Source: Campylobacterales bacterium (GTDB lineage: Bacteria; Campylobacterota; Campylobacteria; Campylobacterales; Sulfurovaceae). Taken from it: 28,149 bases of DNA. The position numbers were made by a program, and so were the translations under genes. The notes beneath the pieces were generated by a model. It searched no databases and had not been told where the DNA came from. It saw only the letters and a list, made by a program, of their open reading frames with translations. The stretch's first letter is position 1. Every line of letters starts with the position of its first letter. The stretch spans positions 1 to 28,149 of the forward strand of contig JAFGWQ010000178.1 in the NCBI GenBank assembly GCA_016937075.1, read 5' to 3'. Positions 10,891 to 27,558 of the stretch are shown piece after piece.

Positions 10891-11618
10891 AACAACTCCG
10901 ACATTCTCCAAAACAACCCTGCATATTCATCAGCCATATAGACCGCAAAAACCCCGAGAAACAAAAAAGGCACGAACGGGACCTGCCTGTTTTGGTGGCG
11001 GGTAAAATACACAAAAGGGATAGCTATCAATGCTGCCGCAAAAAGTGCAACGATCGCCGGCTTGATACCCAAAATAGCTGCCATGGCGCCTCCAATGATT
11101 ATATCTCCTTCTCCCATTGCCTCTTTTTTTGTCGCAAAAGAGACATAAAAACGAAGCATTGACATCCCGCCCATGAACAAAAGGGCATTTTGAAAGGTTA
11201 CTAGGGGGCTATCTGCAAAAAAAGAGGCGCTTAGCAGCGTCAAACTGACGCTGTCATGGATCTCATGATGATGATAATCCATTACCGATAATGCCAAAAA
11301 CAGCGAGAAAACAACACCGAGCCACAAAGAGTGCAGGCTATATCCGCTCTTTAAAAATACAGATACAAAAATAACCATAGTTGCCAACTCCACCAAAGGA
11401 TACTGAATGGATACAGGCTCATTGCAGCATGCGCTTTTGCCCCTTAGGAGCAGCCATGAAACTACAGGTATATTATGATACCACGCTATAGGCGTTTTGC
11501 ACGATTGGCATGAAGACCTTGGGCTAATGATAGACAAGCCCAAAGGCACACGATAGATAACAACATTTAAAAATGAACCTACAAACAGGCCAAAAAGCGA
11601 AACTATGATAAATTCCAT
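10887..11618 (-). CDS. pilD: Prepilin peptidase / N-methyltransferase (A24 family)
   Basis: GSFLNVVIYRVP, Cys motifs CQSC and ACC, catalytic Asp in VMDY and MGEGD, VPFVPFL. Confidence 0.93.
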   Translation of the reverse strand: MEFIIVSLFGLFVGSFLNVVIYRVPLGLSIISPRSSCQSCKTPIAWYHNIPVVSWLLLRGKSACCNEPVSIQYPLVELATMVIFVSVFLKSGYSLHSLWLGVVFSLFLALSVMDYHHHEIHDSVSLTLLSASFFADSPLVTFQNALLFMGGMSMLRFYVSFATKKEAMGEGDIIIGGAMAAILGIKPAIVALFAAALIAIPFVYFTRHQNRQVPFVPFLFLGVFAVYMADEYAGLFWRMSELL

Positions 11619-11627
11619 TTTAATCCT

Positions 11628-12695
11628 TCATTGTGATATTTGCTGCATGAACTCGATGGGGTTATTGGAGTGCTTCAAAGCATTTTGCATCGTGATCATC
11701 TTGTTTTGATAATATTTCGCCATCTCTCTTATCTGCGTTTGCATCCCTGTCGTCGCATAATTGAGCTCCATTTGGGAATATATCTGGTGAACCTTGTCAG
11801 TACGGATAAGGTTTGCTATGGCGTTATTATTGATCATTATCTCAGAGATCGCCAAACGGCCTCCGTCTATTTTGGGCACAAGCACCTGAGAAATCACAGC
11901 AACCAGTGAGATCGCAAGCTGCGCTCTTATCTGGTCTTGCTCATCTCCGCTAAAAACATCGATTATACGGTTGATAGTCCCCGGTGCAGAATTGGTATGA
12001 AGCGTCGCGAAGACCATATGCCCGGTTTCAGCAGCCGTCAAGGCAGCCGATATCGTCTCTTTGTCTCTCATCTCTCCAATCAATATCACATCCGGATCTT
12101 GACGCAAAGAGTACTTCAGCGCCGTTGCAAAAGAAACCGTATCGCTGCCGACTTCTCTAAATGTAAAAACTGATTTTTTTCTGCCGTGTACAAACTCTAT
12201 AGGGTCTTCTATGGTGATGATATGCTTGCTTTCTGTTGTGTTGATCTCATTGAGCATGGCAGCAAGCGTGGTCGACTTGCCGCTTCCGGTAGGCCCGGTT
12301 ACGAGTATGAGCCCTTTACCTCTTTTGACCAATTCCTTGTATATTGTCGGGGCGCCCAACTCATCAAGTGACGGAACATATGACGGAACTACCCTGAAGG
12401 CTGCTGCTATATTTCCAAAACTCCTGCAATAATTCACACGAAAACGTCCGACATCTTTGATGTCGATAGCAAAATCGAGCTCACCGCTCTCTTCGAAAAC
12501 CTTTTTCTGTTTACCGGTAATAATGGAATAACAAAGTTTTTGTACCGTATCGGCATCCAATTCCATCACATCTAGAGCTTTAAGCTCGCCGTCTATGCGT
12601 ATGAGAGGTTCATACCCCACTACAAGATGCAGATCCGATGACCCGCAAGCGATCAAAGCCTTCAATAATGTCTTTATATCTATTTCATAATTCAT
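11628..12695 (-). CDS. pilT: Type IV pilus retraction ATPase PilT
   Basis: SDLHL, GPTGSGKSTT, TIEDPIEF, LRQDPDVILIGEMRD, TLHTNSA, AIANLIR (AIRNLIRE motif). Start reassigned to ATG 12695. Confidence 0.92.
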   Translation of the reverse strand: MNYEIDIKTLLKALIACGSSDLHLVVGYEPLIRIDGELKALDVMELDADTVQKLCYSIITGKQKKVFEESGELDFAIDIKDVGRFRVNYCRSFGNIAAAFRVVPSYVPSLDELGAPTIYKELVKRGKGLILVTGPTGSGKSTTLAAMLNEINTTESKHIITIEDPIEFVHGRKKSVFTFREVGSDTVSFATALKYSLRQDPDVILIGEMRDKETISAALTAAETGHMVFATLHTNSAPGTINRIIDVFSGDEQDQIRAQLAISLVAVISQVLVPKIDGGRLAISEIMINNNAIANLIRTDKVHQIYSQMELNYATTGMQTQIREMAKYYQNKMITMQNALKHSNNPIEFMQQISQ

Positions 12696-12718
12696 AATTA
12701 TCCCACCCATATTTATTT

Positions 12719-13804
12719 TTACCCGCCGGTAGCAGACCACAATGAAACCATACCTAGTATCAAACTCGCAGCTACTACTCCCACGACAAGCCCTATCAAC
12801 AAGGTCATGATGGGCGTTATCGCCTGCTCAAGGATAAATATCCTCTGGTTTGTCTCTTCTTCGTAAATATTCATAAGCTGCACGAGAGCATCTTCTAGGT
12901 TTCCGCTCTCCTCGCCTGCTTGGAGGATATCCGCATATATCAACGGTACAAATTTCGCCTCTTGAAACGGCACGGAGAAATTGCCTCCCGAGATGATGAC
13001 CTCCTTGACATTTTCCAGCACTTTTTTAAAGGGCATTAGATTGATACCCTCCATTGAGATCTCCAAGCTCTCCACCAAGCCCACTCCGCTTCCTATGAGC
13101 TTGGACATCGTATTTGAAAAATTTGTCAGAGCGCTATAGAGCATTATCGAGCCGACAAGAGGCGTGTATATCAATACATAATCCAGATAATAACGCACCT
13201 GCTTGGATGCTTTGTATATCACTATCAAACTGACAAATACAGCGGCACTGTACGTTGCTATATTTTTCCAATTATCCAAGAGGTATGTGGATATATCCAG
13301 CACCATTTGTGTCAATGCCGGCAGCTCGGCTCCCATCGAGGACAAAAATCCTGAAAATGCAGGAATAACCTTGATAGCCATAAAAAAGACAACCCCCACA
13401 GCAAACAGCAATGTCACTATCGGCATCGTCATGGCTCCCCTGATCTTGCGTTTGAACTTGGCTTTTTTTTCAAGGTTATGATGGACTTCTTTGAAAATTT
13501 CAGGCAAATTACCGCTTTTTTCTCCTGCGCCTATCATGGAAAGTGTCATTTTGTCGAAAAACACCGGATAATAACGCCCGATCTTTGAAAAATCGTTACC
13601 CTGCTCTATGAGCGCAACCGCATCTTTGAGCAATAGCTTGATATTGCCCCGCGATGAGCGCTGGATCATCTTGACCGCTTTGAGTACCGGGACACCCGCC
13701 CCCATCAATATCCCCATGAGCCTAAAAAAATTATTTTTTTGTTTTTGCGGGACTTTGCGGATATGGTTCCTATAAAAATGTTCTGCGCCTTTTGCTTTCA
13801 TCAC
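12719..13804 (-). CDS. pilC: Type IV pilus / T2SS inner-membrane platform protein (PilC/GspF)
   Basis: Two T2SSF repeats (GAGEKSGNL, AGEESGNL) and three TMs. Start GTG 13804 or ATG 13801 behind a GAGG RBS, just after the pilB stop. Confidence 0.9.
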   Translation of the reverse strand: MMKAKGAEHFYRNHIRKVPQKQKNNFFRLMGILMGAGVPVLKAVKMIQRSSRGNIKLLLKDAVALIEQGNDFSKIGRYYPVFFDKMTLSMIGAGEKSGNLPEIFKEVHHNLEKKAKFKRKIRGAMTMPIVTLLFAVGVVFFMAIKVIPAFSGFLSSMGAELPALTQMVLDISTYLLDNWKNIATYSAAVFVSLIVIYKASKQVRYYLDYVLIYTPLVGSIMLYSALTNFSNTMSKLIGSGVGLVESLEISMEGINLMPFKKVLENVKEVIISGGNFSVPFQEAKFVPLIYADILQAGEESGNLEDALVQLMNIYEEETNQRIFILEQAITPIMTLLIGLVVGVVAASLILGMVSLWSATGG

Positions 13805-13811
13805 TGCCTCT

Positions 13812-15611
13812 CTAATCAGCCACAACTTTTCTGAGTTCATCGACAGATGTGATGCCCTCGAGGACTTTTGCCCTGGTTTCCATATAAATGGTTGACATCC
13901 CCAGCTCGGAAACTGCATAGGATTTGATCTCTATGTCGCTCCTGCGTTCATTGATCATTCTTTGTATATGCGCATCGATTATCAAGAGTTCATATACGCC
14001 GATCCGCGAGGCGTATCCGGTGTTGTTGCACTTAAAACACCCTTTGTGGCGGTATATCGTTTGAGGCTCATCCAATTTGAGCAGCGACATATCAGCCTGT
14101 GAAGTTTCATACGCCTCTTTGCAGTGCGGGCACAAAACACGCACCAGCCTTTGAGCCAAAACAGCAGCGACTGAAGAAGAGACCAAAAACGGCTCTATCC
14201 CCATATCTACAAGCCTCGTCACAGAACTTGGGGCGTCATTAGTATGGATGGTAGAATAGACCAAATGCCCCGTCAATGAAGCTCTGAGCGCGATCTCTGC
14301 CGTCTCTTTGTCGCGGATCTCGCCTATCATGATCACATCAGGGTCTTGGCGCAATATAGTCCTGAGCGCATCCGCAAATGAGACCTTGTATGGGTCTATT
14401 TGGACTTGATTGACCCCGGATATTTTCGCCTCTACCGGGTCTTCTACGGTCGTGATGTTGATCTCGTCGGATTTGATCTCTTCTATGGCCGCTTGCAAAG
14501 TGGTCGATTTACCGCTCCCGGTAGGCCCAGAGACCAAGATTATCCCGTGCGGTTTTTTGATGACTTTCCTCCATTTTTCCAGCAGCTCTCCGCTCATGCC
14601 TAAACTGCTGAGCTTTATCGTCACATCCTGTCCGCCAAGACGTCTTAATACGATCTTTTCTCCGTAAATGACAGGCATGACCGAGACGCGAAACGGTACA
14701 TCTTTTCTCTCTTGCGCTTCATCTAAGTATGTGTACACCATTTCGCTGCTGTGCGTATCTGATTTTTCTTCTGCATCATTGCTTGCTGATTGTTTATTTT
14801 GAGAATTAAAAGAGGAAAAAAAATTTGCTGCTTTCAGGGATGTGTTCGTGTCTTCCTCGGCTTTTTCATTGTACGAATAGACCAAAGCGCCGTCTTGCGT
14901 ATCTCTTTTTTCGGCGATATTAAGGTTGGAGATCAGCTTGATGCGAGAACTGAAAGAAGGAAAAAAATTCTTGCCATATTCACCGAAAACCTGTAAAACC
15001 CCGTTAAACCTCATCCGTATCCTGAAATTGTGTTTTTGCGGTTCTATATGGATATCTGATGCTCCTATAGAAATGCATTTCCTTATCACTTCTTCGGCGA
15101 ACTTGATTGCCCTAATATTCTCAGGGATCTTTGCTAAGTCCTTATCGCTGCTTAGGGAAAAGTTTCTTCTCATCTCCATGCCGTTTTGCAGCACATCCGA
15201 CATCCGGGCAAACGCTTCGCGATCAACCGCTATCTTCTCTATCTCTCGTCCTAACTCGCTTGAAAGCTCTTCCCATGTCGCTGCAAATACCGGCGAATCG
15301 AAATATATTCTGGCATTTGCCTCATCGACGATATCTGCGATCACACGGTATTTCTCAAACAACTCATCTGTTATTACCGTATATTCGGAAACAAAAACCG
15401 CTTCATTGGCTTCTTTGGCTTCAAACTTTTGAGCCAAAAAAGCTGCCATGAACTCTTTGGATGCGATACCGTTTTTGTAGATGATATCCCACATGGGAAT
15501 TTTGCTTGATGTCTGTTCTTTGATGATGGAGGCACGGCCTTTGTTGTTGATGACGCCTGATTGCTCCAATTCTCTTAGGAGTGTCGCTTCAAAGTCTCTT
15601 ATATTTCTCAT
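13812..15611 (-). CDS. pilB: Type IV pilus extension ATPase (PilB/GspE family)
   Basis: ASDIHIEP, GPTGSGKSTT, TVEDPVE, LRQDPDVIMIGEIRD, STIHTND, Zn tetracysteine CPHC...CFKC. Confidence 0.93.
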   Translation of the reverse strand: MRNIRDFEATLLRELEQSGVINNKGRASIIKEQTSSKIPMWDIIYKNGIASKEFMAAFLAQKFEAKEANEAVFVSEYTVITDELFEKYRVIADIVDEANARIYFDSPVFAATWEELSSELGREIEKIAVDREAFARMSDVLQNGMEMRRNFSLSSDKDLAKIPENIRAIKFAEEVIRKCISIGASDIHIEPQKHNFRIRMRFNGVLQVFGEYGKNFFPSFSSRIKLISNLNIAEKRDTQDGALVYSYNEKAEEDTNTSLKAANFFSSFNSQNKQSASNDAEEKSDTHSSEMVYTYLDEAQERKDVPFRVSVMPVIYGEKIVLRRLGGQDVTIKLSSLGMSGELLEKWRKVIKKPHGIILVSGPTGSGKSTTLQAAIEEIKSDEINITTVEDPVEAKISGVNQVQIDPYKVSFADALRTILRQDPDVIMIGEIRDKETAEIALRASLTGHLVYSTIHTNDAPSSVTRLVDMGIEPFLVSSSVAAVLAQRLVRVLCPHCKEAYETSQADMSLLKLDEPQTIYRHKGCFKCNNTGYASRIGVYELLIIDAHIQRMINERRSDIEIKSYAVSELGMSTIYMETRAKVLEGITSVDELRKVVAD

Positions 15612-15626
15612 TTTTCTTCTTTTTGA

Positions 15627-16928
15627 TTATTGTATGATCACATTCTGGTTTGGCAAGAACATCATCGAGCGGCTGTCCAACAACTCCCATGCGCCTGCTT
15701 TTTTCTGCATGATAACCACCTGCTTTTCTCCCGCAGTAATATAAAAAGGGTTTGCGGCATCATCTGTATTTCTATCATGCGTAACGACTGTCTGTGTATT
15801 TGTGCTTATGCGTATATCTTTTATAAAAGTCGTTATGCCAAGCTGAGTGCCTTCGGCGCTATCGTGAAAATCATACGCGGTGTTATTGATAGTAAGCGTA
15901 TCATTCGCAGCTGTTGCCAGGTCTATATCAAATGCATATTTGACCGCCCCCGCATGCCACCCTGTCGTGCTTTGCATGGCATCTGACAAACTAAATCCGC
16001 TTGCATATGTCAAAAACGGTTTATACGCTATATCAGTCCCGCCGCAATCTGCATTAATAGTATTTTTTTCTATGCAATTTGACGTAGTATTTGGTACATA
16101 ATAAAGCATCGGAGAGTAGATGATGACCCTCACAGCAGTGATATCGGCACTGTTTTCAAGCACGAGATCTATAGATAGCGATCTTGGCATAAAATTATTT
16201 TTCGCATACTCCACGCCGATATCATCCGCATATAGCGCTTTGACGGATTTTGTATCGGTTGCAAATTCATTAAATTCAGGTTTGAGATGCGGTATCGCCG
16301 CGCTTGTTTGCTTATCGCTTCCGTACGATATCAGTTTCACATACGGTGTCGGCGGAGTAGTATCCGCGATATTGAGTTCGTAAACTGCCTCGATGGGCGT
16401 ATTCCACCCGTCTTTGAGTGTTTTATTTAAATTGCTGCTTGCGGCGAGATAGGAGTCATGGAATCCTACATACAAAGCGCCGTGTTTGCCGTCAATTACA
16501 CTCATGCCCTCTGCGGGGTCGATATACTTGCCTGACACCGTTGTGTTGTCCGTCAGAAACGGCATCGGCACTTTGAATGTATTTGCAACACTATAGAGAT
16601 CTGCTATACGGTATTTGCCGAGTGTCTTTGCTTCTCCTGACGCGCCGGTATTAATAAAATAGTTTGCATTTTCACGATCAAGCATAAAATGCAGGTTCGG
16701 CGGCAGCGTTCCGAAATCATTCAAAAAGCCGCTCAAGTCTCCGCTGCTCTCTTGTGCTATAATCCCGTCTTTGATATTTTGCATTGTTTTTACCGTTAGC
16801 TGTTTGGCCTGTATGTTTCCTGCATCCTTAAGCCCGCTGAGCACCAATGTCGAAAGCATCCCTATGATCGCAATGACTATCAATAACTCTATGAGTGTAA
16901 ACGCCTTTCTTGCTGCTGTAAACATCAT
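15627..16928 (-). CDS. Large type IV pilin-like protein (GspG-like core plus ~200-aa C-terminal domain)
   Basis: Class III signal RKA|FTLIELLIVIAIIG; NDFGTLP, DGWNTPI, LISYGSDK motifs; one Cys pair. Confidence 0.85.
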   Translation of the reverse strand: MMFTAARKAFTLIELLIVIAIIGMLSTLVLSGLKDAGNIQAKQLTVKTMQNIKDGIIAQESSGDLSGFLNDFGTLPPNLHFMLDRENANYFINTGASGEAKTLGKYRIADLYSVANTFKVPMPFLTDNTTVSGKYIDPAEGMSVIDGKHGALYVGFHDSYLAASSNLNKTLKDGWNTPIEAVYELNIADTTPPTPYVKLISYGSDKQTSAAIPHLKPEFNEFATDTKSVKALYADDIGVEYAKNNFMPRSLSIDLVLENSADITAVRVIIYSPMLYYVPNTTSNCIEKNTINADCGGTDIAYKPFLTYASGFSLSDAMQSTTGWHAGAVKYAFDIDLATAANDTLTINNTAYDFHDSAEGTQLGITTFIKDIRISTNTQTVVTHDRNTDDAANPFYITAGEKQVVIMQKKAGAWELLDSRSMMFLPNQNVIIQ

Positions 16929-17944
16929 CTATCCTCATTGTAAAAAAAACTACTCAACCCATTATCAAAAAGGTACAAAACCGAATCATCGTAGCCTTGC
17001 GCAGTATAATCTATATCGAGCGTAGCGACACTCGTATCTCTCCTTCTATCAGGCCCGAACGATACTATGCGCGCGTATTTGGCCCTGAGAGTTCCTGCGC
17101 CGGATACTCCTGCGAGTGCGTCCGATGTAGGTATCTGTATCTCATACGGGGTACCATACGGGTCGAGTACCGTCGGGGCATTGAGCATGGTTGAGCTTTT
17201 TACGCCGTAGATTTCTTTGCGGTTTCTTGCATTTTCGTACAAACTGTTCATAGTGCCGTCGAATACGGGGGTATATACCGGGTAAAGTTCGGCATTTGCT
17301 TTGGCTGCGTCCCATGCGGTATCGATATCCCAAAGCGTAGATGCACCGTCAAACTTATACAGCTCGATATCCTGCTGCGCTACAAAATAGAGATTGCCCG
17401 TTTCGGCTTCGCCGCCACCCAAAGCTTTGAGGCTTGAAGGCTTGAGATAGCCGTTGCCTGCTATATATCCACCCTTCCATCCGCCCTTATCGGGATTAAG
17501 CTTTTCTTTGATGATGTCTATGAGCACCTGCTTGCGCTGCGTTCCTGTGCCGTTATCCCCCTCGCTTGTGGCATCCACTCTCAAATCTGCGGCATTGGTA
17601 TAATGGCGGTCTATGAATGAGATCATATTTCTGCATACATCGCTTGTGGCTGCATTGTTATAATTCACCGCGCCGATACCGCCTGTAACGTCAAAGCATT
17701 TCTCGAAACCGTATGTCAGCAATGACACATTATCAGGCGCAAATCCCACATCCCCGTAAAACTCCAAAGCGCCTTTTTTGATCATCTTCATTTGAGATTC
17801 ATTGAACTGTTCTTGTGCTGCCTCTTTGGTGTTGCTCAATCTCGGGGCAACTATAGCAACCAAAAAACCCATGATAACTATGACGATCAACACCTCGATT
17901 AGCGTAAACGCGCTGCGGTTTTTTGTCACTCTGCAAGTTTTCAT
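16925..17944 (-). CDS. Large type IV pilin-like protein, GspG-like
   Basis: RSA|FTLIEVLIVIVIMGFLVAIVAPRL; FYGDVG, GWKGGYI, DPYGTPY, IVSFGPDR...DD motifs. Confidence 0.87.
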   Translation of the reverse strand: MKTCRVTKNRSAFTLIEVLIVIVIMGFLVAIVAPRLSNTKEAAQEQFNESQMKMIKKGALEFYGDVGFAPDNVSLLTYGFEKCFDVTGGIGAVNYNNAATSDVCRNMISFIDRHYTNAADLRVDATSEGDNGTGTQRKQVLIDIIKEKLNPDKGGWKGGYIAGNGYLKPSSLKALGGGEAETGNLYFVAQQDIELYKFDGASTLWDIDTAWDAAKANAELYPVYTPVFDGTMNSLYENARNRKEIYGVKSSTMLNAPTVLDPYGTPYEIQIPTSDALAGVSGAGTLRAKYARIVSFGPDRRRDTSVATLDIDYTAQGYDDSVLYLFDNGLSSFFYNEDR

Positions 17945-18285
17945 ATTAGTTTCTTGACAAGTTGAATATATTTTGGGTCTATTTTGATCTTGTTGCCGGC
18001 GCCAAAATCCATCTTGATATCTTTGAGATAACCTGTCTTTTTGATAGCATCAAACACTAAAAACGCTTGCGTAGCAGTATAGCTCAATCTATATCCGGCT
18101 ATTTTCACAGTCGCTTTCTCATCCCCTCTTGCCAATGACAGAAATATACTCTTCGCATCCCTGTCAAACTCCATATCCTCTATCTTGCCCATCTCGGCGG
18201 GGATCTGCATATTTACCAAAGGCAAAATGTATGTCTGGCTGCTAAACACCTTTTGTGTCAATTTTTTTAGTTTTGTGTATATCAT
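17941..18285 (-). CDS. Hypothetical basic protein within the pilus operon
   Basis: AAGGA RBS and ATGA overlap with the downstream pilin; no family recognised. Confidence 0.75.
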   Translation of the reverse strand: MIYTKLKKLTQKVFSSQTYILPLVNMQIPAEMGKIEDMEFDRDAKSIFLSLARGDEKATVKIAGYRLSYTATQAFLVFDAIKKTGYLKDIKMDFGAGNKIKIDPKYIQLVKKLI

Positions 18286-18294
18286 CTGTATTCC

Positions 18295-19485
18295 TTATTT
18301 TCGTAATTTGAGTATCGGCATCGTTTCTATGCTTTTTGGGGCCGCTTCTTGCAGAGGCTCATCAAAAGTTTTTAGATTAACGACGCAACCCCCCTGTCCG
18401 GTATTGTCCAATTGATTTGAGATCATAAGCTTGAGGTCATCAGGCTTGGTAGATGCCGCCAACACCTCATCCATATCCGCCGCACCATCAAGGTAAAGCT
18501 TCATAAGCGCCTGGTCAAAACTCTGCATGCCGTATATGCTTCCTTGAGCGATGGCATCGGTGATCTCGCTATCCATATTGTCTTTTATGAGCTGTTTGAT
18601 ACGCTCGCTTGCTACCATGATCTCTATAGCAACACATCTGCCGCCTTTTTTGTTTTTGATGAGCCTTTGTGCCAATATCCCTTGCAAAACAGAAGCCAGC
18701 GTAAGGCGGATACGGTTTTGCTCGAACATCGGGAAGATCCCTATGATCCTGTCTATGGTCTCTTTGGCATCCAAGGTATGGAGCGTGGAAAGCACCAGAT
18801 GCCCTGAATTTGCGGCATGCAAAGCTATCTCGACTGTTTGTGCATCCCTCATCTCTCCGACCAGGATGATATCGGGGTCTTCCCTGAGGGCGGATTTGAG
18901 TGCGTTATGGAAACTATACGTATGCTCGCCGACATTTCGCTGCTCGATGATGGATACCTTGTCGTTATGCACGAACTCTATCGGGTCTTCTATAGTGATG
19001 ATATGCCTTTTTTTGGCAGAATTGATAGCATCGATGATGGCTGCCAATGTCGTAGATTTACCGCTTCCGGTAGTCCCCGTGACCAGCACCAAACCGCGCT
19101 CAAAATTTGCAAACTGTTCAACACTCTTTGGCAAACCAAGTTCCTGCAGCGTCGCGATTCGTGTCGGAATGATACGAAAAACCGCCCCGTATCCGCCCAA
19201 ATGCCAAAAAAAGTTAAAACGGAACCGTTTTTTGCTTTTGTTTGTATAGTATCCGTCAAGCTCTTTTTCATCATGCAGTTTTTTCTGTTGCTCGGGAGAT
19301 AATATCTCAAGCATAGTAGCTTTAAAAAATGCCTTATCCAACACCTCTTTGCCGATCACTTCTATATCGCCATTGATCCTGGCCCTGGCTGGGGTATCTG
19401 TTTTGATATGCAAGTCACTTCCGCCCTTTTCCACCATGATATCGAGCAGCTTGTCAAGTTTTGTTTTCATGTTGTCGTACTGCAT
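18295..19485 (-). CDS. pilU: Second retraction ATPase, PilU-like
   Basis: GSDLHI, GTTGSGKSTT, LREDPDIILVGEMRD, STLHT, GMQSFDQAL; AIRNLIRE motif degenerate (RIKQLIKD); C-terminal extension. Confidence 0.78.
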   Translation of the reverse strand: MQYDNMKTKLDKLLDIMVEKGGSDLHIKTDTPARARINGDIEVIGKEVLDKAFFKATMLEILSPEQQKKLHDEKELDGYYTNKSKKRFRFNFFWHLGGYGAVFRIIPTRIATLQELGLPKSVEQFANFERGLVLVTGTTGSGKSTTLAAIIDAINSAKKRHIITIEDPIEFVHNDKVSIIEQRNVGEHTYSFHNALKSALREDPDIILVGEMRDAQTVEIALHAANSGHLVLSTLHTLDAKETIDRIIGIFPMFEQNRIRLTLASVLQGILAQRLIKNKKGGRCVAIEIMVASERIKQLIKDNMDSEITDAIAQGSIYGMQSFDQALMKLYLDGAADMDEVLAASTKPDDLKLMISNQLDNTGQGGCVVNLKTFDEPLQEAAPKSIETMPILKLRK

Positions 19486-19491
19486 CAGGCC

Positions 19492-21162
19492 TCACTTCCC
19501 GATATACGGCTTTTGGCCGTTATGCCTGGATGATTCCGCGCTCTCAGGGTCATAGCAAAAAGTATCCTTGTATGTGAGGTTATCTTGCAGTTCATTGCGG
19601 ATATCCTGGCGCACTTTATTTTCTTTTGGATTATTCGGATCTATGATAGTAGGCGTCAAGACCATGATTAGCTCCCTTCTTGATTTGTCATTTGCTGTTT
19701 TTTTGAATATCGTGCCAAACACAGGGATATCGCCCAAAACAGGCACCTTGCTCTCATTAATTGAATTTTGCTCCCTGATCATCCCGCCCAAGACTATGCC
19801 CTTTTTATCGGTAGTGCTCAAAAGCGATTTGATGGTATATTTGGATATGCCGTCTATTGTATAAGATTGCGTACCCCCCGTGGCGATCGGTATGACTATG
19901 GTTTGCGTTTTGCCGCTGAGAGATGATATCTCGGCATCTATCTTGAGCAGTATCTCGTTATTTTCATTAATAAACGGGGTTATGCCAAACTGTGTACCGA
20001 GTTGTTTCTTTTCATATATCGGCGTAGGCGGGATAACCACGCTTCCCCCCTCATTTGTCGTAACCGAACCTTTCTCTATGCCTGTGACCACATATCTCTC
20101 TTCTGTCAGGTCCAGCTTGGAAGATATCCTGTTTAATGTCAGCAATACAGGCGAAGATATGGAAGTCGCCTTGCCGTTGTGTTTGGCTATATCTATATTT
20201 GCCTGTATATTAGAACTGAGAAACATATAGCTTATATTGCCTATGCTTCCCGTACTGCTAAGCACCTTGCCCAAAGCAGACGATTTGGAATCTTTGATGA
20301 TAAAATCAAAGAACGAATGGTAATTATCCCCCAATGTCATCTCTATGATCTCCGCTTGGATCAATACTTGTTTCATAGGCCGGTCTATCTTCTTGAGCAG
20401 TTTTTTCGCCTCTGCTATCAGCTCAGGTTTGGACGAAGAGAGAAAAACCATATTTTCATTGAAATAAGGCACGATATAGAGTACATCACGCGGTATATTG
20501 CTGTTTTGCAGCGCCGTATCAGAGCTTGCAGCAGGTGTATTTGCGCTGCTTGTAGCTGCAGTGCTTGTGCTTGCCGTACTCGCAGAACTGCCGCTGTTGT
20601 TTGCACCCTCGATACCCGGAGCCACGCTCGCACCTTCAGTGGAGGTAGCAGCTTTCATTGGCTGTATGGAGAGATCTGGTGTCATATTCACCAGGTTGCT
20701 GTATGCGAGATTTTTGCTGCTCGAATTGATCACTGCGCGCCCGGGCATCATATCCACCAAAAAATTGATAGCATCACTCAAAGCCGTATATTTGACCGTC
20801 ACTTGCGCCGTATTGAGCGTACCGCCATAATAATTGCTTTCCAAAAACTCCTGCTTGGAAGTGAATGTGACAATGTTATTGTTTTGAACATATGTAAGGC
20901 CGGATTGTTCTGCGACCATATCGAGCAAACCCTTCATGTTTCCATTTTGCATATGCACAGATAACGGTATCTCTTGGTATTTTGGGTGCACATTAAAATT
21001 GAGCCTATACTCATTGCCGAGATAGCCGAGCAGGTTTTGGACGGATATCTTGTCGAAATTGACATACTCTATCTCTATTTTGCTCAGCTCTTTTGCATTG
21101 ATACTGCTTGTTGCCAGAGCTATTGCCAGCCATATCCCGATTGCGATCTTTTTAAATATCAT
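19492..21162 (-). CDS. pilQ: Secretin (PilQ/GspD family)
   Basis: QVLIQAEIIE, SSPVLLTLN, GITPFIN, VLGGMI, KVPVLGDIPVFGTIF, ELIMVLTPTII. Start reassigned to ATG 21162 behind a GGAGGAG RBS. Confidence 0.88.
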   Translation of the reverse strand: MIFKKIAIGIWLAIALATSSINAKELSKIEIEYVNFDKISVQNLLGYLGNEYRLNFNVHPKYQEIPLSVHMQNGNMKGLLDMVAEQSGLTYVQNNNIVTFTSKQEFLESNYYGGTLNTAQVTVKYTALSDAINFLVDMMPGRAVINSSSKNLAYSNLVNMTPDLSIQPMKAATSTEGASVAPGIEGANNSGSSASTASTSTAATSSANTPAASSDTALQNSNIPRDVLYIVPYFNENMVFLSSSKPELIAEAKKLLKKIDRPMKQVLIQAEIIEMTLGDNYHSFFDFIIKDSKSSALGKVLSSTGSIGNISYMFLSSNIQANIDIAKHNGKATSISSPVLLTLNRISSKLDLTEERYVVTGIEKGSVTTNEGGSVVIPPTPIYEKKQLGTQFGITPFINENNEILLKIDAEISSLSGKTQTIVIPIATGGTQSYTIDGISKYTIKSLLSTTDKKGIVLGGMIREQNSINESKVPVLGDIPVFGTIFKKTANDKSRRELIMVLTPTIIDPNNPKENKVRQDIRNELQDNLTYKDTFCYDPESAESSRHNGQKPYIGK

Positions 21163-21514
21163 AGCGAACAGCTCCTCCGTTGTTGATTGATAATAATACA
21201 TAGCCGTGTTCTATTTTGATGACCTTTATGGAGGTCTTGATATCCGATGTATCTACATACACACTCTCTCCTTCACAGACATACAAAAGCCCCTTTTCCT
21301 GAATATCGAGCAGCGCTTTGTGTATCCCGTCTTTATACATGATACCCTTGACCTTGATATCGGCCTGCCTGTTCGTGCTTGTCGGCGTCAAGTAATACTT
21401 GCCTGTTTTTTGGATATACCTGTCGCTTACCGCGAACGGGTCTCTTTGGACATTCCATTTCGCCGCTTCTATCAGCGTCGATAAAGCGGCCAATACTATC
21501 ATCGCTTTTTTCAT
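21152..21514 (-). CDS. PilP/GspC-HR-like alignment subunit (no lipobox Cys)
   Basis: Signal peptide, RDPF motif, VKGIMY..ALL..V.EGE..VIKIEHGYVLL beta pattern; lies between pilO-like and the secretin. Confidence 0.65.
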   Translation of the reverse strand: MKKAMIVLAALSTLIEAAKWNVQRDPFAVSDRYIQKTGKYYLTPTSTNRQADIKVKGIMYKDGIHKALLDIQEKGLLYVCEGESVYVDTSDIKTSIKVIKIEHGYVLLSINNGGAVRYDI

Positions 21515-22053
21515 AGGGTCAGCACCCCTATTTGGATCTTTGTTTTGACCAGCATTTTGTTGTTTTCGATAAAGATCTTATACTCCACGATCTTGACATC
21601 CGCATACATAGAATACACATGGTCATAAAAATTCATCAAGCCCGCATAAGAACCGTTCACGGTCAATTCCATAATGTTTTGCTTTGTATCCATTTTGTAC
21701 TCATATATATCAAATTTGTACAAATTCAATTTCCCTATCACGGCTATGGCGATATCATCACTGTTTTTATAGATGACTTCGCCGAACTTATCGACTTTTT
21801 CTTTGAGTTTGCTCTCTTCATGAACCAGCGATATCTTTTCTTGTTTGAGCTTTCTGATATCCTTTGCCAATCTATCCTCTTTGAGCATGGTTATATTCTG
21901 TTCCACATCCGATATCTTTTTGATGGCCGGCGCCATGTTTTTGTTGTAGAGATAATAGATAAACACTGCACCGATTATTACCTGTACGCCTATAATGAGA
22001 TATTGATTTTGCAATAGTGCCAGCGCACGGCGTTTTAACTCATCACTGTTCAT
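21511..22053 (-). CDS. PilO/GspM-like alignment subunit
   Basis: Single TM, coiled coil, ferredoxin-like C-terminus (LTVNGSYAGLMNFYDHV); synteny. Confidence 0.7.
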   Translation of the reverse strand: MNSDELKRRALALLQNQYLIIGVQVIIGAVFIYYLYNKNMAPAIKKISDVEQNITMLKEDRLAKDIRKLKQEKISLVHEESKLKEKVDKFGEVIYKNSDDIAIAVIGKLNLYKFDIYEYKMDTKQNIMELTVNGSYAGLMNFYDHVYSMYADVKIVEYKIFIENNKMLVKTKIQIGVLTL

Positions 22054-24053
22054 AATATCTCCAAAACAAACTCATTATTAAAATTGCTCTCCAATAGTTT
22101 TTGCCGGTCATTTGTATCGGCCCTATTGGACTCTTCGAGCCTTGAGGGCTCATCCTTGGCAGAGTCTCTGTCATTCAAAGGAAGCGTGCGGGTTTTGTTT
22201 TGCGGGTACTCGAACAATTCCCTCATTGACCCTTGCGCATTAGGCGCGCCGTTTGATGCCGCGAGTTGATAGGTGGTCCTCTGGCTTTTATCCGCTGCTG
22301 GCATCTTGTTTTTCCCTTTGTTGTCCGTCAGGCTCTTTAAAAATACTTTTTTGCCCTGCAATGAAAGCGCACGTATATACTTTAGCAGCGAAGATTCGTA
22401 TATACATCGTCCAGATACGGTGATAACGGTATTTGTATCCGTATTTGCTACCGGCGCTTTTTTTTCTATATTGGTCAAAACCATATCGTCAGGCAACCCG
22501 TTGGCTATCATATGCAGTGACTTCGCCTCTTGGGATACCTTTTTTGCATCTATGAGGTTTTGCATATTTGCTACCTTACTATTAAGTGCCGCTATGTTTG
22601 ATTTGATCCTTTTATTGGCTGCTTCCAGTCTCTTTTTTTGCTCATTTTTCTCCGTCACGTGCTGATGCTCTTTGATGATGTTATCCAGCTTGTATTCCAG
22701 ATACCACTGCCCCGCATAAGTCAGCCCGGCTATCGCTGCGATCACAAAAAACGGCAGTACAGAAGTGTTCTTGTGAAGCTGCTCATATGAACTCAGATGT
22801 TTGCTGACTCCCAAGCGAATCGCTTTGAAGTTGATCTTGAACAGCTCGTGGTACGCTATGCTTACGACCGTTACGTAGCTATTATCCAGGCTGATATCCC
22901 TCTCTAAACGGCTGATACAGTTAGGCAGGTCTTTGTTGTAGTTGTATGTCCTTATATGCACCCCGCCTGCCAAAAACTCTATTTTCATCTTTTTATAAAA
23001 ATCACCGCCGCCGCTCAGGACTGTTTCGGGCGCATTTGCAGCCAGTGCCATGAGCGCTTCATAGTCATAATGCAGGTTAAACTGCTGATAATCAAAGCTT
23101 CCATCTTCGTTTTGATACATCGTATAAGCATTTGCCCCTATAACATGTATGCGAAAATGCGACGCGTTATCATCAGTGTACGACGACGAAAACAGTGATG
23201 ACTTCACAGAGTGGAACTTCTTGATGGAGATATCCGACGCATCCATATAACTCTCTATGCGGTCATACGCCTCTTTTTCGCAGATAGAGACAAGCTTATG
23301 CATCCTATCCTTCTCTCCTGTCCTAAACGGAGATATGGTCGCATACACATCGCTCATGCCGTATCCGGAGATAGCTTCTATCTCTTTGTTGATAGCGCTG
23401 TTTAACATGGTTTCATCTTTGAAACGGCTGCTTTGTATGCTCACTTTATAAAAATCACAGTAAGCATCTTGGATGATAACTATCTGGCTCGGAAGCGCAT
23501 ATATAGTCTCATATGATACTATGGTGATGACGTTTTCTGGCGATTCATACCACGTATGGTCCATTTCCGCCTCTACGCCGGTGATCCGTTTGTGTACTAT
23601 GTGCAGCTCATCATACGTGTAGCTTTTGAGATATTTGATATCCAAAAACACCCCCTGCTTGGAGACTATTGACACCGTGACCACGTCACTGAGCATTTCG
23701 ATCACGAAAATCGATCTGGGAAACAGCGATGTGATGACATTATCCACCGCTTCGAGGAAGCTTAGCCTCATCTTTTTGACCTGGCTTATGACGGTGGCGG
23801 ATTGCTCTACGAAAATATCGTTGACATCAAGGGTGTATTTCGCCGCAGCAGGCTCTTTGACGCTCAGAAGCTCTATGATCTTCTCTTTACGCTTATTGCT
23901 CCTGCTAAATAGGCTGCCGAAACTCCATTGCAGTTTATCGCCGACTGTATTTTTGCCGGGTTCTTTGGTATTGAAAAATTTGACCATGTTCACAGCATCT
24001 TTTTTATCTTTGCCAAAGAGCCGGACAAGCTTCTGTTTGATCCGTTTCATCAT
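22050..24053 (-). CDS. Fused PilM-PilN (GspL-like architecture) protein
   Basis: Actin-like cytoplasmic part with VLSGGG motif, one TM (VLPFFVIAAIAGLTYAGQWYL), coiled coil, PilN-like IANGLPDDMVLTNI...ITVSGR. Confidence 0.7.
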   Translation of the reverse strand: MMKRIKQKLVRLFGKDKKDAVNMVKFFNTKEPGKNTVGDKLQWSFGSLFSRSNKRKEKIIELLSVKEPAAAKYTLDVNDIFVEQSATVISQVKKMRLSFLEAVDNVITSLFPRSIFVIEMLSDVVTVSIVSKQGVFLDIKYLKSYTYDELHIVHKRITGVEAEMDHTWYESPENVITIVSYETIYALPSQIVIIQDAYCDFYKVSIQSSRFKDETMLNSAINKEIEAISGYGMSDVYATISPFRTGEKDRMHKLVSICEKEAYDRIESYMDASDISIKKFHSVKSSLFSSSYTDDNASHFRIHVIGANAYTMYQNEDGSFDYQQFNLHYDYEALMALAANAPETVLSGGGDFYKKMKIEFLAGGVHIRTYNYNKDLPNCISRLERDISLDNSYVTVVSIAYHELFKINFKAIRLGVSKHLSSYEQLHKNTSVLPFFVIAAIAGLTYAGQWYLEYKLDNIIKEHQHVTEKNEQKKRLEAANKRIKSNIAALNSKVANMQNLIDAKKVSQEAKSLHMIANGLPDDMVLTNIEKKAPVANTDTNTVITVSGRCIYESSLLKYIRALSLQGKKVFLKSLTDNKGKNKMPAADKSQRTTYQLAASNGAPNAQGSMRELFEYPQNKTRTLPLNDRDSAKDEPSRLEESNRADTNDRQKLLESNFNNEFVLEIL

Positions 24054-24595
24054 AAATGCGACAACACCTCATCTTCGCTGACTTCGCCTACGAACCTGGC
24101 TTTGATCTCCATTGTCTTGGTATCCACCAGATAGCTTACCGGAAATGCGGTCGGCTCAAAGATATCATAATACCCTTCAGGGATCCTCGATACGGCATAC
24201 TCTATGCCGTGAAGGCTCGCAAAATCCCTTACCTTCGACGGATCTGCGGCTATATACCCGATGACGCTCAGCTTGTCGTTTTTATCGAGTTTATTGAGAG
24301 TATCTATGCTCTTTATGCAATGGCTGCACCGCAAGGCAAAAAACTCGAACAATACATACGGCTTGGCATCAACCTGCTTTTTTATCTCTTTCGAATCGCC
24401 AATGTAAGCCGATATATCTATGGAATTCAATGCATTGCCGCTATTTTGCGATGCATTCTCATCATGCCCGCAATGCACGCAAGGCTGCTGTGCCGGGATC
24501 GCTGCCCATACGGCTATCACGACTCCGAGCATGCTGAGCAGCAGTACCATTCTTTTAGTTTTATCCTGCATTGCCTCTTTGATCTTTTGTACCAT
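24050..24595 (-). CDS. Membrane-anchored thioredoxin-fold protein (TlpA/ResA-like)
   Basis: FFALRCSHC active-site motif, cis-Pro loop FPVSYLVD, N-terminal TM; additional CVHC motif near the N-terminus. Confidence 0.8.
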   Translation of the reverse strand: MVQKIKEAMQDKTKRMVLLLSMLGVVIAVWAAIPAQQPCVHCGHDENASQNSGNALNSIDISAYIGDSKEIKKQVDAKPYVLFEFFALRCSHCIKSIDTLNKLDKNDKLSVIGYIAADPSKVRDFASLHGIEYAVSRIPEGYYDIFEPTAFPVSYLVDTKTMEIKARFVGEVSEDEVLSHL

Positions 24596-25768
24596 TTATG
24601 CTCCTTTAGCTTCTTGGGCGGTATCTTCGCACCCTTTTAGCTTGCATACCAAAGCGTACCAATCCTCAAGCGCAAGATAGATGAGCTTATCGGCCTTCGT
24701 ATGCTCTATGCCTGCTTTGGTCTCCAAGGCATATGCAAGCTGATGCGCCATATACGGGTTTTTTTGCTCCAGTATCGCCATATATTTTGCAGATTTTTGT
24801 ATATCGCCGGATAGTGCGGCGCATATACTCATAGCTCTTAGAAGGTCATCGCTTGGCTTTAGCGCATAAGAGCGCTCATATGCTTCCAATGCAGGCGCAA
24901 ATGCCCCTATCCGCTGCAAACCTGCCCCTTTGATCTCCAATGTACGCCCGTCATGCTTGGCGATATTTTCTATATGCTTCATAGCTTCGAGCAAAGCGTT
25001 GTGTTTGACATACAATTCTGCCGCTGTTCTGTTTGCCCCGTCATGATTTGACCGGATGCTTACTATTTTTTGGGCTGTGCGCAAGGCTTTCATATCATAG
25101 CCCTCTTTTTGGTAGCGTGCCATGAGCTTTTCGAGCTGCGCTATATCGTTCGTTACCTTATACTCATTTGCTATCTCTTTGGCTGCGGGCTTTTTGGCCA
25201 ATTTTTCATATGCCTGCGCCAATGGTGCTAGGAGTTCATCGCCTTCATACTGCCCGCTTGCTTTGATATGCGCATAGTAGCCGTACGCGTCGTCATATTT
25301 GCCTGTTTTATACATATTAACGGCCAAAAGCCTGTAATATTTGATCTGCGGCCCGTCATGATGAATGAGCGAAAGAGCCTCGCCGGCGCTTTTGGTATAA
25401 TCTTTGAGCATATGGTCCACAAGCGCCACGGCATATCCCGCTTCAAAATCATCGGGGTTGAGCTCATAAGCCCTGGCATAGTACTTTCTCGCATTTGCCA
25501 TATCCCCTTTGTGGCGATACAAAGCTGCTATGCTGTGCAGGCTTCGATCATCCTTGTCATAGAGCGCTACGGCTTCTTGGTACAATTTCAGCGCTTCGTC
25601 ATTTTTGCCTCCCGCGTATGCATTGTATGCATTGAGGGCAGTTTCTTGAAATACCCTTACTTTGTTCTGTTCGGTCTCGTAGGCATAATATCTGTATCCT
25701 ATCCATGCGGCAATTCCCGCCATGACGATAGGAATCAAAGCAATAATTATTTTGGTCTGTATAGTCAT
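24596..25768 (-). CDS. Membrane-anchored tetratricopeptide repeat protein
   Basis: N-terminal TM followed by repeated TPR-like units (ALKLYQEAVAL, ARKYYARAYELNP, ALEAYERSYALKP). Confidence 0.82.
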   Translation of the reverse strand: MTIQTKIIIALIPIVMAGIAAWIGYRYYAYETEQNKVRVFQETALNAYNAYAGGKNDEALKLYQEAVALYDKDDRSLHSIAALYRHKGDMANARKYYARAYELNPDDFEAGYAVALVDHMLKDYTKSAGEALSLIHHDGPQIKYYRLLAVNMYKTGKYDDAYGYYAHIKASGQYEGDELLAPLAQAYEKLAKKPAAKEIANEYKVTNDIAQLEKLMARYQKEGYDMKALRTAQKIVSIRSNHDGANRTAAELYVKHNALLEAMKHIENIAKHDGRTLEIKGAGLQRIGAFAPALEAYERSYALKPSDDLLRAMSICAALSGDIQKSAKYMAILEQKNPYMAHQLAYALETKAGIEHTKADKLIYLALEDWYALVCKLKGCEDTAQEAKGA

Positions 25769-25948: not shown

Positions 25949-25974
25949 GTCGCCGGGGATCGCTCCCCGGCGGC
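25949..25974 (-). other. GC-rich stem-loop with a GNRA tetraloop
   Basis: Minus strand CGCCGGGGA-GCGA-TCCCCGGCG, perfect 9-bp stem followed by only a weak U tract. Confidence 0.75.
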
Positions 25975-26017: not shown

Positions 26018-27070
26018 TTATTTAAGAGAGATACCTACAGCATCAGAGCTTGCTCCCCAAGTATGTCCTTCAGGGCAAGATGTCGTAAAGTCAGTAACTT
26101 TTTGCGCACCGAAATACTCATAACCGCTCGCAGGAGTACGTCCGACTATCTCTAATGTGCCGTCATCTTTTTCATTTAGCGCAACAGCATGCAATGTATC
26201 TTCACCCATTCTGTCCATTGTAGCTGCAAGTCTCGGCACGACTATTACGTAGTTGCCCCAACTGAAATTGTCAGCATTTTGAAGTTGTCCAGGGCAAGTA
26301 CCTGCTTCATCCAATATACCGCTTTGTACCATTTCTCCGTCTTTACCTACACCGAGCAAGATACGGCCGATATTTTTACCTTCGTGCATAAATGCAAATG
26401 TACCGCCAACTTGTGCATTTTCAGAAGTAGCATCTTTTGGATCAACCGGAGTAGCACTTCTTGTAGCAACATTGCCGGCTACGGTAACAGTATCGCCTTT
26501 GGCATATGCCGGAACAGCAGCATTAGTAGCAGCACCCATACCTGCCATCAATACTTTAAGGTCAACAGCTACAGGCTGTCTTGTACCTCTTTCTTTAATG
26601 TTTGTACTGCCGCCTGCTTGTTGTTCGCCAAGAAGAACATTATTAACTTGTGCGAGCATTTTAACTGCGCCCATACCCATACCTCTAAGCTCTTTTGCTT
26701 CATCAGCGTTTAGTGTATAAACTTGCGGTTTGAATCTCTCTGCAAACTCGGCAGACAAGAACTCAGGCCCGTTCGTTTTATCTTCATCTGACGCAGCAGG
26801 GACAGCAGCAGTGGTACCGTTAGCATCAGTTGCAACGACCATGTTGGTCAATCCGGCAGGAAGTTTACTGTCAAGCGCATAAGCTGAATTTATAATCTTT
26901 CTTAGTCTCTCTTGGTTGGTATCGCACGCAGTATCTACGCCTTTATCCACTATACCTGCCAATTTCGGCGCTACCATAGCTACCAAAAAGCCCATGATCA
27001 CTAATACAACCAAGATTTCGATGAGCGTGAACGCACCTCTAGCCCCTGTTTTCTTTTGGTTTTTCACCAT
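26018..27070 (-). CDS. Candidate major type IV pilin, 350 aa (337 aa mature)
   Basis: Strong RBS AAGGAG before ATG 27070; RGA|FTLIEILVVLVIMGFLVAMVAPKL class III signal; first gene of the cluster with its own terminator; A/T-ending Ala/Thr/Val codons unlike the neighbouring genes. Confidence 0.85.
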   Translation of the reverse strand: MVKNQKKTGARGAFTLIEILVVLVIMGFLVAMVAPKLAGIVDKGVDTACDTNQERLRKIINSAYALDSKLPAGLTNMVVATDANGTTAAVPAASDEDKTNGPEFLSAEFAERFKPQVYTLNADEAKELRGMGMGAVKMLAQVNNVLLGEQQAGGSTNIKERGTRQPVAVDLKVLMAGMGAATNAAVPAYAKGDTVTVAGNVATRSATPVDPKDATSENAQVGGTFAFMHEGKNIGRILLGVGKDGEMVQSGILDEAGTCPGQLQNADNFSWGNYVIVVPRLAATMDRMGEDTLHAVALNEKDDGTLEIVGRTPASGYEYFGAQKVTDFTTSCPEGHTWGASSDAVGISLK

Positions 27071-27143
27071 AAGATCTCCTTTTTTGAAATATTTTATCCA
27101 TACGGTTATGATACTGATTATCACAACCGCAGAAGCGAACTTT

Positions 27144-27282: not shown

Positions 27283-27308
27283 CGTCATCCTCGCAAAGGC
27301 AGGGACCA
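27283..27308 (+). repeat. CGTC-type REP / dRS3-like palindrome
   Basis: CGTCATCCTCGCAAAGGCAGGGACCA, imperfect hairpin behind a CGTC tag. Confidence 0.65.
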
Positions 27309-27325
27309 GCTTTTTTAAAAGATGT

Positions 27326-27340
27326 CATAATCGCATCATT
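27326..27340 (+). repeat. 15-nt direct repeat, copy 1
   Basis: CATAATCGCATCATT, identical to 27559-27573. Confidence 0.85.
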
Positions 27341-27539: not shown

Positions 27540-27558
27540 AAATTATTTTAAATCCTGC

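Follow-up and report, generated by a model that had tools for sequence, protein, structure and literature searches.

An exceptionally large type IV pilin of the PihD family heads a pilus locus in a Campylobacterales bacterium and is a candidate major subunit

The window analysed here is a stretch of 28,149 nucleotides from a Campylobacterales bacterium of the Sulfurovaceae (GenBank assembly GCA_016937075.1, contig JAFGWQ010000178.1, positions 1 to 28,149 of the forward strand), and the gene in question, at 26018..27070 on the minus strand, stands at the head of a type IV pilus (T4P) locus. Its product, called the head pilin below, is a genuine type IV pilin and exceptionally large; its predicted structure places it in the PihD family, which is conserved across phyla. 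We propose, with a probability of about 0.6, that the head pilin is the main filament-forming subunit of a rare, PilT-equipped (Pih-type) pilus that resembles both the MSH system and the type II secretion system (T2SS).

Results

The head gene encodes a genuine prepilin of exceptional size

The coding sequence (26018..27070, minus strand, stop codon included), defined by translation of the open reading frame (ORF) and by profile matches, specifies a precursor of 350 residues. A Shine-Dalgarno sequence, AGGAG (27076..27080, minus strand), lies 5 nt 5' of the ATG and agrees with the strong ribosome-binding site noted in an earlier interpretation made from the DNA letters only (the sequence-only reading). 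The ORF translation starts with MVKNQKKTGARGA/FTLIE and reads KKTGARGA/FTLIEILVVLVIMGFLVAMVAP around the cleavage site, the slash marking the predicted cut. The basic leader MVKNQKKTGARGA (27032..27070, minus strand) has 13 residues, and the prepilin peptidase is predicted to cleave between Ala13 and Phe14. The protein passes both the Pfam N_methyl model (22.6 bits, cut-off 21.2) and TIGR02532 (20.8 bits, cut-off 16.3). Across an alignment of 149 homologues, the residue at position -1 is Gly in 110 and Ala in 34, with Phe at +1 in 96% and Glu at +5 in 98%. Because this alignment places cleavage at Ala13/Phe14, the mature protein is taken to have 337 residues (35.2 kDa and an isoelectric point of 4.8, both computed for cleavage after Ala13). 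The N-terminal α1 helix comprises residues 14-67 (26870..27031, minus strand; AlphaFold helix at residues 16-67, 52 residues) and carries the mature residues Phe1, Glu5, Gly14 and Pro22 (F14, E18, G27 and P35 of the precursor), which are kept in 96-99% of the homologues (Gly14 in 99%, Pro22 in 97%).

The 1,955 major T4a pilins of KEGG orthology K02650 have mature lengths of 42-297 residues (mean 141), and the largest pilin in any solved pilus, Myxococcus xanthus PilA, has 208 mature residues (Treuner-Lange et al., 2024, PMC11046646). At 337 residues the head pilin exceeds this range, and the mature length and exceptional size claimed by the sequence-only reading are both upheld. Large size is moreover a property of the whole family, with about 100 clusters of 283-422 residues that align over their full length and occur in Campylobacterota, Thermodesulfobacteriota and Bacillota. 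A volume calculation for the 285-residue globular part (8.5-10.5 Å rise, 75-100% packing) gives a filament width of 7-9 nm. The identical calculation for a 208-residue pilin gives 5.5-6.2 nm as against about 7 nm measured, and because it falls short in that case a width of about 8-10 nm is a fair guess for a filament of head pilin, crude as a volume estimate is.

The gene heads the locus and is followed by a hairpin spacer

Between 27070 and 10000 every gene is on the minus strand, and together these genes make up one pilus locus. Eight loci were read (that of the window and those labelled L007, L008/L009, L105, L106, L107, L110 and G369), covering 30-75% G+C and at least three phyla. A PihD-family gene comes first in each of these PilB/PilC/PilT loci (8/8), and the first position remarked on for the window is thus a constant of the set. 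In the window a gap of 249 nt between the pilin stop codon and the next gene holds two strong stem-loops, among them a GC-rich 9-bp hairpin 46 nt 3' of the stop (25951..25972, minus strand); the 96-nt stretch with this hairpin folds at -35.4 kcal/mol (z -3.2). The sequence-only reading had given the gene its own terminator. The strong GC hairpin is indeed there, but its tail, GAUUUAAUUAUAU, has no clean U-run and a terminator scanner did not call it, so that, its U-tract being imperfect, it is better described as a candidate for any of three roles, those of terminator, attenuator and mRNA stabiliser. A spacer of 75-250 nt with a strong hairpin follows the head pilin in all eight loci (z -2.2 to -8.7; seven of the eight beat all 60 shuffles), while the hairpin sequence itself is not conserved between them.

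In pilus operons, a head gene followed by a hairpin spacer is the classical arrangement for the major subunit. The remaining prepilin genes in these loci overlap adjacent genes, and their number and size (296-702 residues) differ widely from one locus to the next, as is usual for sets of minor pilins. Both observations speak against the principal alternative, weighed further below, that the head pilin is a low-abundance minor pilin.

Upstream of the head pilin no sigma-54 promoter (TGG-N9-TGCW) was found, the nearest look-alike being off by one base, and sigma-70-like matches occur there only at chance level. The AT-rich leader upstream of the gene (27290-27580, minus strand) holds the word AATGATGCGATTATG twice, each copy being followed by a GC-rich palindromic segment.

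Codon usage sets the head pilin apart from the rest of the locus

The codon adaptation index (CAI) was computed with 15 ribosomal protein genes as reference and is given as a percentile among 995 ORFs of the source genome, a 1.18-Mb assembly (G000) that is 74% complete and has 37% G+C. The head pilin has a CAI of 0.645 (90th percentile) and a G+C content at third codon positions (GC3) of 0.33, as against a CAI of 0.36-0.46 (0-3.5th percentile) and a GC3 of 0.43-0.55 in the 15 machinery genes at 10000-25768; the other two pilins of the window have a CAI of 0.44-0.45. The codon contrast with neighbouring genes that the sequence-only reading had described is thereby confirmed and quantified, and codon adaptation far above that of every other gene of the locus is not what a low-abundance minor pilin would lead one to expect. 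The genes flanking the locus (590-9958 and 27664-28089) and the pilin gene have a GC3 of 0.22-0.38. The pilus locus of the window looks like a horizontally acquired island; the pilin gene itself does not look foreign. Either translational selection, acting on a highly expressed gene, or a mosaic origin could account for the contrast. In four of five other loci the GC3 of the head pilin is below that of its neighbours, with a higher frequency of T at third positions; the difference is clear in L107 (0.33 vs 0.46-0.57, host flanks included) and weak in L007, L106 and L008.

The PihD family is widespread among phyla and rare within them

The best match of the predicted structure among clusters of the AlphaFold Database (AFDB) is Q3A689, annotated 'minor pilin PihD' (Foldseek E 8e-23, TM 0.66 on the query and 0.58 on the hit, 28% identity, residues 2-333). 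One sequence search returned 81 full-length relatives of 198-422 residues with 27-56% identity, and an exhaustive HMMER search returned 102 representative clusters at E ≤ 1e-10. Where members are named, they belong to Campylobacterales metagenome-assembled genomes and to Desulfothermobacter acidiphilus (Bacillota), and the ESM Atlas clusters are mostly from Thermodesulfobacteriota. Searches of 200 further genomes of the order, the same genus included, did not recover the family, and among 400 other genomes of the phylum it is present in one; among the genomes searched it occurs only together with Pih-type machinery.

A family of small pilins (150-180 residues, as seen in G369) has the opposite distribution and occurs in every one of 60 other genomes searched within the order, almost none of which has a Pih-type locus. 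Because they occur in genomes that lack such a locus, the small pilins are assigned to another, universal system, probably the competence pseudopilus. They were not found in the source genome, probably on account of its 74% completeness. The only other prepilin found in the source genome is a GspH/FimT-like protein of 216 residues (contig C82:7795-8445; L002 1495-2145), the gene of which adjoins the ATP-citrate lyase genes. A scan of genome contigs for the pattern of the N-terminal helix returned GspG-like pilins from many phyla and was uninformative for the PihD family.

The Pih pilus was named from the genome annotation of Pelobacter carbinolicus and P. propionicus, where PihD, PihP and PihQ are listed as large minor pilins and PihA, which has no signal motif, is proposed as the major one (Aklujkar et al., 2012, PMC3543383). 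The Pelobacter gene order is pihD-O-P-Q-I-J-K-L(secretin)-M(PilT)-E-G-F-B-A-H, with pihD first (PMC3543383). In the literature searched, 'PihD' or 'Pih pilus' appears in this one paper only, and no experimental study of the Pih pilus was found; a Sulfurovum transcriptome paper mentions only MshL and CpaE. PihD of P. carbinolicus (Thermodesulfobacteriota; now Syntrophotalea; Pcar_0863) resembles the head pilin in predicted fold, in size (395 residues), in its PilD-type signal and in its place at the start of the locus, and differs in being annotated as a minor pilin. The two loci share I/J/K-like proteins, a secretin, PilT-like and PilB-like ATPases, PilC and further large pilins. The window lacks a PihF/B/A/H-like block after pilC (judged from gene content; no PihA sequence was searched), and its core order is slightly different. 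Campylobacterota loci add two genes after the pilin, for a tetratricopeptide repeat (TPR) protein and a CXXC protein, as well as a second PilT and an A24 peptidase, and the window also has an SLT transglycosylase.

The globular domain is conserved and predicted to be a much enlarged pilin domain

The globular part contains a variable middle (residues 136-230; 26381..26665, minus strand) that is rich in indels and in Ala, Thr, Gly and Val, followed by a conserved block at residues 231-290 (26201..26380, minus strand; GRI..G, LDEAGTCPG, WGNY and PRL.AT), with near-invariant R236, Y274, P279, R280 and L281, and a conserved C-terminal block at residues 326-340 (26051..26095, minus strand; TTSCPEGHTWG). 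The conserved C-terminal region pointed out by the sequence-only reading is recovered as these two blocks in the family alignment; its variable middle stands as a gap-rich region, except for a conserved island at residues 161-180. A sequon for N-glycosylation, D-A-N-G-T, is found in a variable loop (residues 82-86; 26813..26827, minus strand). Over the family as a whole such sequons number 78 where 50 are expected, a 1.6-fold enrichment, and they are concentrated in variable loops. The source genome encodes an STT3/PglB-type oligosaccharyltransferase (contig C68:5590-6708). As far as these motifs go, the head pilin may be N-glycosylated.

AlphaFold models of the protein are confident, with a pLDDT (predicted local distance difference test score) of 90.2 at full length and of 93.4 when only residues 40-350 are modelled. 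Foldseek found no match in the PDB at E ≤ 0.001 with either the full or the domain model (TcpB appears only as a chance-level row, E 1.5), and a structure search of the ESM Atlas matched only the head pilin's own family cluster. VIA-align was swamped by the long helix when the full model was used and became informative only with residues 40-350 folded alone. Of 48,161 PDB chains compared with this domain model, 19 reach Z ≥ 2, and 17 of these are pilins or pseudopilins; the best are PilJ (Z 3.9), EpsG (3.7) and PulG (3.6), and PilA1 and PilV are also among them. About 80 residues align in the pilin matches, spread across residues 1-300 of the domain model, at a Z of at most 3.9. As a weak structural statement, the 285-residue globular part would consist of a pilin core with large β-rich insertions that have no known fold, and the spread of the core matches suggests insertions into the fold, not an appended module. 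Extra mass placed within the fold would again argue against a minor pilin. No functional module was recognised in the head pilin by Pfam, Foldseek against the PDB, VIA-align or ESM Atlas.

The head pilin as major or minor subunit

The sequence-only reading had proposed the head pilin as the major subunit; the cross-phylum family, the foreign composition of the locus and the Cys3-His pattern described below go beyond that reading. Indirectly in favour of the proposal are its place as head gene, the hairpin, the codon usage, the overlapping and variable genes of the other large pilins, and its occurrence only with Pih-type machinery, the small pilins of the order being found in genomes that lack it; this is what leads us to the probability given at the outset. 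Several findings weigh against it. The sole published annotation of the family, PihD, is as a minor pilin, albeit from genome annotation only (PMC3543383). In G369, the second genome in which codon usage was tested, the CAI of the head pilin stands at only the 29th percentile of 41 background genes, while being the second highest among the pilus genes; the codon contrast is absent from the Bacillota locus L105; and the low GC3 in the window could instead come from mosaicism at the border of a foreign island. The 339-residue prepilin of the same locus (16925-17944) has a nearly identical N-terminal half of α1 (α1N), with Glu5, Gly14 and Pro22. The globular domain is conserved across phyla, with E124, R236, Y274 and R280 near-invariant, which is atypical of major pilins and fits a specific binding or catalytic role, so far as alignment can tell. 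Among public sequencing runs, no RNA run was listed with the pilin sequence, and the matches in three metatranscriptomes of the same study were confined to short pieces of less than 90% identity over ATPase motifs, from other organisms, and are uninformative on expression. Finally, the source genome is only 74% complete.

In a rival reading the head pilin is a minor pilin of low abundance, acting as a tip adhesin or in priming, and the bulk of the filament is made of the 339-residue prepilin, a PihA-like protein or a small pilin encoded elsewhere. We regard this reading as unlikely, if well short of negligible. It can draw on the listing of PihP and PihQ, beside PihD, as large minor pilins (Aklujkar et al., 2012, PMC3543383) and on strong conservation of the globular domain with its near-invariant polar residues, as in a functional module. 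A pilin of about 160 residues is encoded on another contig of G369, and the incompleteness of the source genome also leaves room for one. Known pilins of such size, namely TcpB of Vibrio cholerae, CofB of enterotoxigenic Escherichia coli (ETEC), GspK, and PilB and PilC of Streptococcus sanguinis, are minor pilins in which a module has been added at the C-terminus or a discrete, recognisably folded insertion is present; their genes lie inside or late in the operon. The head pilin shares with them a length above 300 residues and a pilin N-terminus. It differs in that its core strands are predicted to span the whole chain and its gene heads the locus. Of the other candidates for the bulk subunit, the small pilins are universal in the order with or without a Pih-type locus, the additional large pilins are encoded by the overlapping and variable genes described above, and the block after pilC that contains pihA in Pelobacter has no counterpart in the gene content of the window.

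DNA sequencing run X1 contains contigs with a 2-base deletion near the 3' end of the gene for the 339-residue pilin (window position 16942), at a depth of 27 of 33 compared with about 5 for the strain of the window. In a related strain of greater abundance this gene may be frameshifted or may end differently.

A putative Cys3-His metal site would link the helix to the globular domain

The head pilin has three cysteines, Cys49 on the C-terminal half of α1 (α1C; mature residue 36; 26924..26926), Cys259 (26294-26296) and Cys332 (26075-26077), which co-occur with His336 (26063-26065; all on the minus strand). The C-C-C-H combination at positions 49/259/332/336 is found in 67 of the 149 homologues. 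About 56 of the 149 are without all three cysteines and mostly have D/S/S/Y; these include internal paralogues of some loci. Desulfothermobacter (Bacillota) and two others have C-C-C-C, and such an exchange of His for Cys is, at the level of sequence, typical of metal ligands. The pattern does not fit the usual C-terminal D-region disulphide, the number of cysteines being odd, with one on α1C and the set co-occurring with His336. Because the Cys3-His set co-occurs, because His is exchanged for Cys and because the odd number of cysteines includes one on α1C, Cys49, Cys259, Cys332 and His336 probably form a putative tetrahedral metal site. A cupredoxin-like site, considered for the C-x3-H spacing, was rejected, the ligand set being Cys3-His and no fold match having been obtained. 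Haem attachment, considered in view of the CcmH/CycH-like TPR protein and the ResA/DsbE-like protein encoded nearby, was likewise rejected, as there is no CXXCH motif and the TPR match is below cut-off. Internal PihD-family paralogues of about 323-325 residues without cysteines (D/S/S/Y) occur in L008 (14251-15228), L110 (12539-13510) and G369 (C33:16573-17544); the window, unlike several other loci, has no internal PihD-family paralogue.

Genes for a TPR protein and for a thioredoxin-fold protein with a CXXC motif follow the pilin in all Campylobacterota loci with cysteine-bearing pilins (window, L007, L008, L107 and G369). In the window these are a TPR protein of 390 residues (24596..25768, minus strand), the conserved second gene of Campylobacterota loci, with a weak match to CcmH/CycH-type TPR models that is below cut-off, and a membrane-anchored thioredoxin-fold protein of 181 residues with a CSHC motif (24050..24595, minus strand), which is TrbB/DsbE/ResA-like and also conserved in Campylobacterota loci. 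The pair lies at 24050-25768 in the window, 11229-13396 in L007, 11235-13800 in L008 and 9307-10955 in L107, with CSHC, CPHC, CGFC or CRYC as motif, and is not in the locus of 70% G+C or the Bacillota locus. Both genes are absent from the strict-anaerobe loci L105 and L106, and no CXXC protein was seen in the portion read of the L110 locus, the pilin of which lacks the cysteines. To judge from the sequences of this small sample, such a distribution would fit a need for reduced thiols in a more oxidising periplasm. The other two pilins of the window each hold a cysteine pair and are an equally possible target of the CXXC protein.

A conserved domain with a Cys3-His pattern, encoded alongside thioredoxin-fold and TPR proteins, might also belong to a protein that is not polymerised at all, the prepilin signal serving only to anchor or export a periplasmic or surface protein with an enzymatic or metal-handling domain. 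We consider this extremely improbable: Glu5, Gly14 and Pro22, which serve in filament assembly, are near-invariant, the gene is constantly linked to a complete assembly and retraction machine, and the domain matches no enzyme fold.

The locus encodes a putative retractile machine with T2SS-like components

The remainder of the locus (10000..24053, minus strand) encodes, in gene order, proteins of 667, 180 and 120 residues, a secretin, a PilT-family ATPase, a 114-residue protein, the prepilins of 339 and 433 residues, a PilB/GspE-like ATPase, PilC, a second PilT-family ATPase, an A24 prepilin peptidase and an SLT transglycosylase. The prepilin peptidase (A24_N_bact and Peptidase_A24), the T2SSE ATPase and the T2SSF platform protein are thus present in the locus of the head pilin; the 667-, 180- and 120-residue proteins match no family. 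Both PilT-family ATPases score above the family cut-off (432 and 447 bits, cut-off 319). The assembly ATPase scores 459 bits with GspE and 429 with PilB, and the secretin 123 bits with GspD, 104 with MshL and 98 with PilQ, all below the equivalog cut-offs; the two proteins score about equally with models for T2SS and T4P. Related loci carry an MshEN-domain ATPase and an MSH-like gene order.

The slight lead of the T2SS models for the assembly ATPase and the secretin, together with an N-terminal helix that is closest to GspG (TIGR01710, E 1.8e-9, residues 14-68), would suit another reading, in which the head pilin is the major subunit of a short periplasmic pseudopilus, either a T2SS-like piston or a DNA-uptake machine, and no pilus that is both long and thick extends from the surface. 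At the crudely estimated width of 8-10 nm, a filament would also be tight in a secretin channel. To our knowledge classical T2SSs have no PilT-type retraction ATPases; the locus has two of the PilT/PilU family above cut-off, the related loci have the MSH-like features just described, and profile searches of the window proteins detected neither GspC, GspL or GspM nor a T2SSG domain. A pseudopilus is accordingly judged very unlikely. The sequence-only reading had described the globular part of the head pilin as without the GspG motifs of the other two pilins. By profile, GspG models match only the N-terminal helix in all three pilins of the window, and the globular parts of the three match neither Pfam T2SSG nor any other Pfam family at E up to 10. 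The head pilin itself scores 37.7 bits with TIGR01710 (cut-off 88.85), PF08334 is not detected at E up to 10, and the protein is about 2.5 times larger than GspG, PulG or EpsG, the last two of which are among its best core matches.

Neighbouring genes and other prepilins vary between loci. In two Campylobacterota loci, L007 (348-9653) and L110 (1445-9927), the head pilin directly follows genes for Fur-family regulators, for an EAL protein and for the transport of metal or iron (TonB/ExbBD, a TonB-dependent receptor, P-type ATPases and hemP), and the pilus may be under iron or metal regulation. The locus of a relative with 70% G+C (L111, 9105-14158) ends with a 702-residue prepilin with GspG-like motifs (GWRGGYV, DAWGRPL, STGPDGED), a SpoIID-domain protein and an A24 prepilin peptidase. 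In L109 (6190-13888) four large prepilin genes (376, 342, 375 and 697 residues) stand in tandem with long spacers and a PIN/MazE toxin-antitoxin pair between them, and no machinery genes are in view; they may be an array of pilin variants.

Discussion

In the mechanism that we favour, with the head pilin as main subunit, the prepilin would be inserted in the inner membrane and cleaved between Ala13 and Phe14 by the A24 peptidase of the locus. The PilB/PilC motor would polymerise it through its canonical α1 helix with Glu5, Gly14 and Pro22, and the filament would leave through the locus secretin and be retracted by the two PilT-family ATPases. The 114-residue protein and the 339- and 433-residue prepilins, encoded by overlapping genes inside the operon, may form a priming or tip complex. 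The metal site, going by the co-occurrence of its residues, would staple the C-terminal lobe to the α1 helix in place of a D-region disulphide. GspG binds Ca2+, and it and the head pilin would be alike in gaining stability from a metal rather than from a disulphide.

The closest comparison among major pilins is with M. xanthus PilA. Both proteins have a canonical α1 with Pro22 and an enlarged globular domain that holds the extra size, and PilT-driven retraction is presumed for both. The head pilin differs in its size (337 as against 208 residues), in sequence similarity that is confined to the N-terminal helix, and in having the Cys3-His pattern instead of disulphides; its abundance in a filament is only proposed.

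A bolder version of the proposal, which we rate as quite unlikely, would have the PihD family build, as repeating subunit, a class of thick (about 8-10 nm), retractile T4P that has not been seen before, with a metal centre in every subunit, Cys3-His or Cys4, that ties the core helix to the outer lobe. Maturation of the centre would, in microaerophilic Campylobacterota, fall to two dedicated proteins encoded just after the pilin, a TlpA/CcmG-like thiol reductase and a CycH-like TPR chaperone. If this were true, the filament would contain one metal ion per subunit, with a structural or possibly a redox or a sulphur- or metal-binding function, in sulphur- and metal-cycling anaerobes. A Cys3-His link between the core helix and the globular domain would in itself be a novel means of stabilising or functionalising a pilin.

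Were the head pilin a minor pilin instead, it would be one more uncharacterised large pilin, of modest interest. If the PihD family does form the filament, it would contain the largest major type IV pilins known, with 337 residues here and up to about 420 in relatives, and the known limits on how wide and stiff a pilus can be, and on what can pass the secretin, would be extended. The sole annotation of the family, 'minor pilin PihD', would be corrected, and the family would define a Pih-type pilus that is patchy and apparently horizontally spread among sulphur- and metal-cycling Campylobacterota, Thermodesulfobacteriota and Bacillota.

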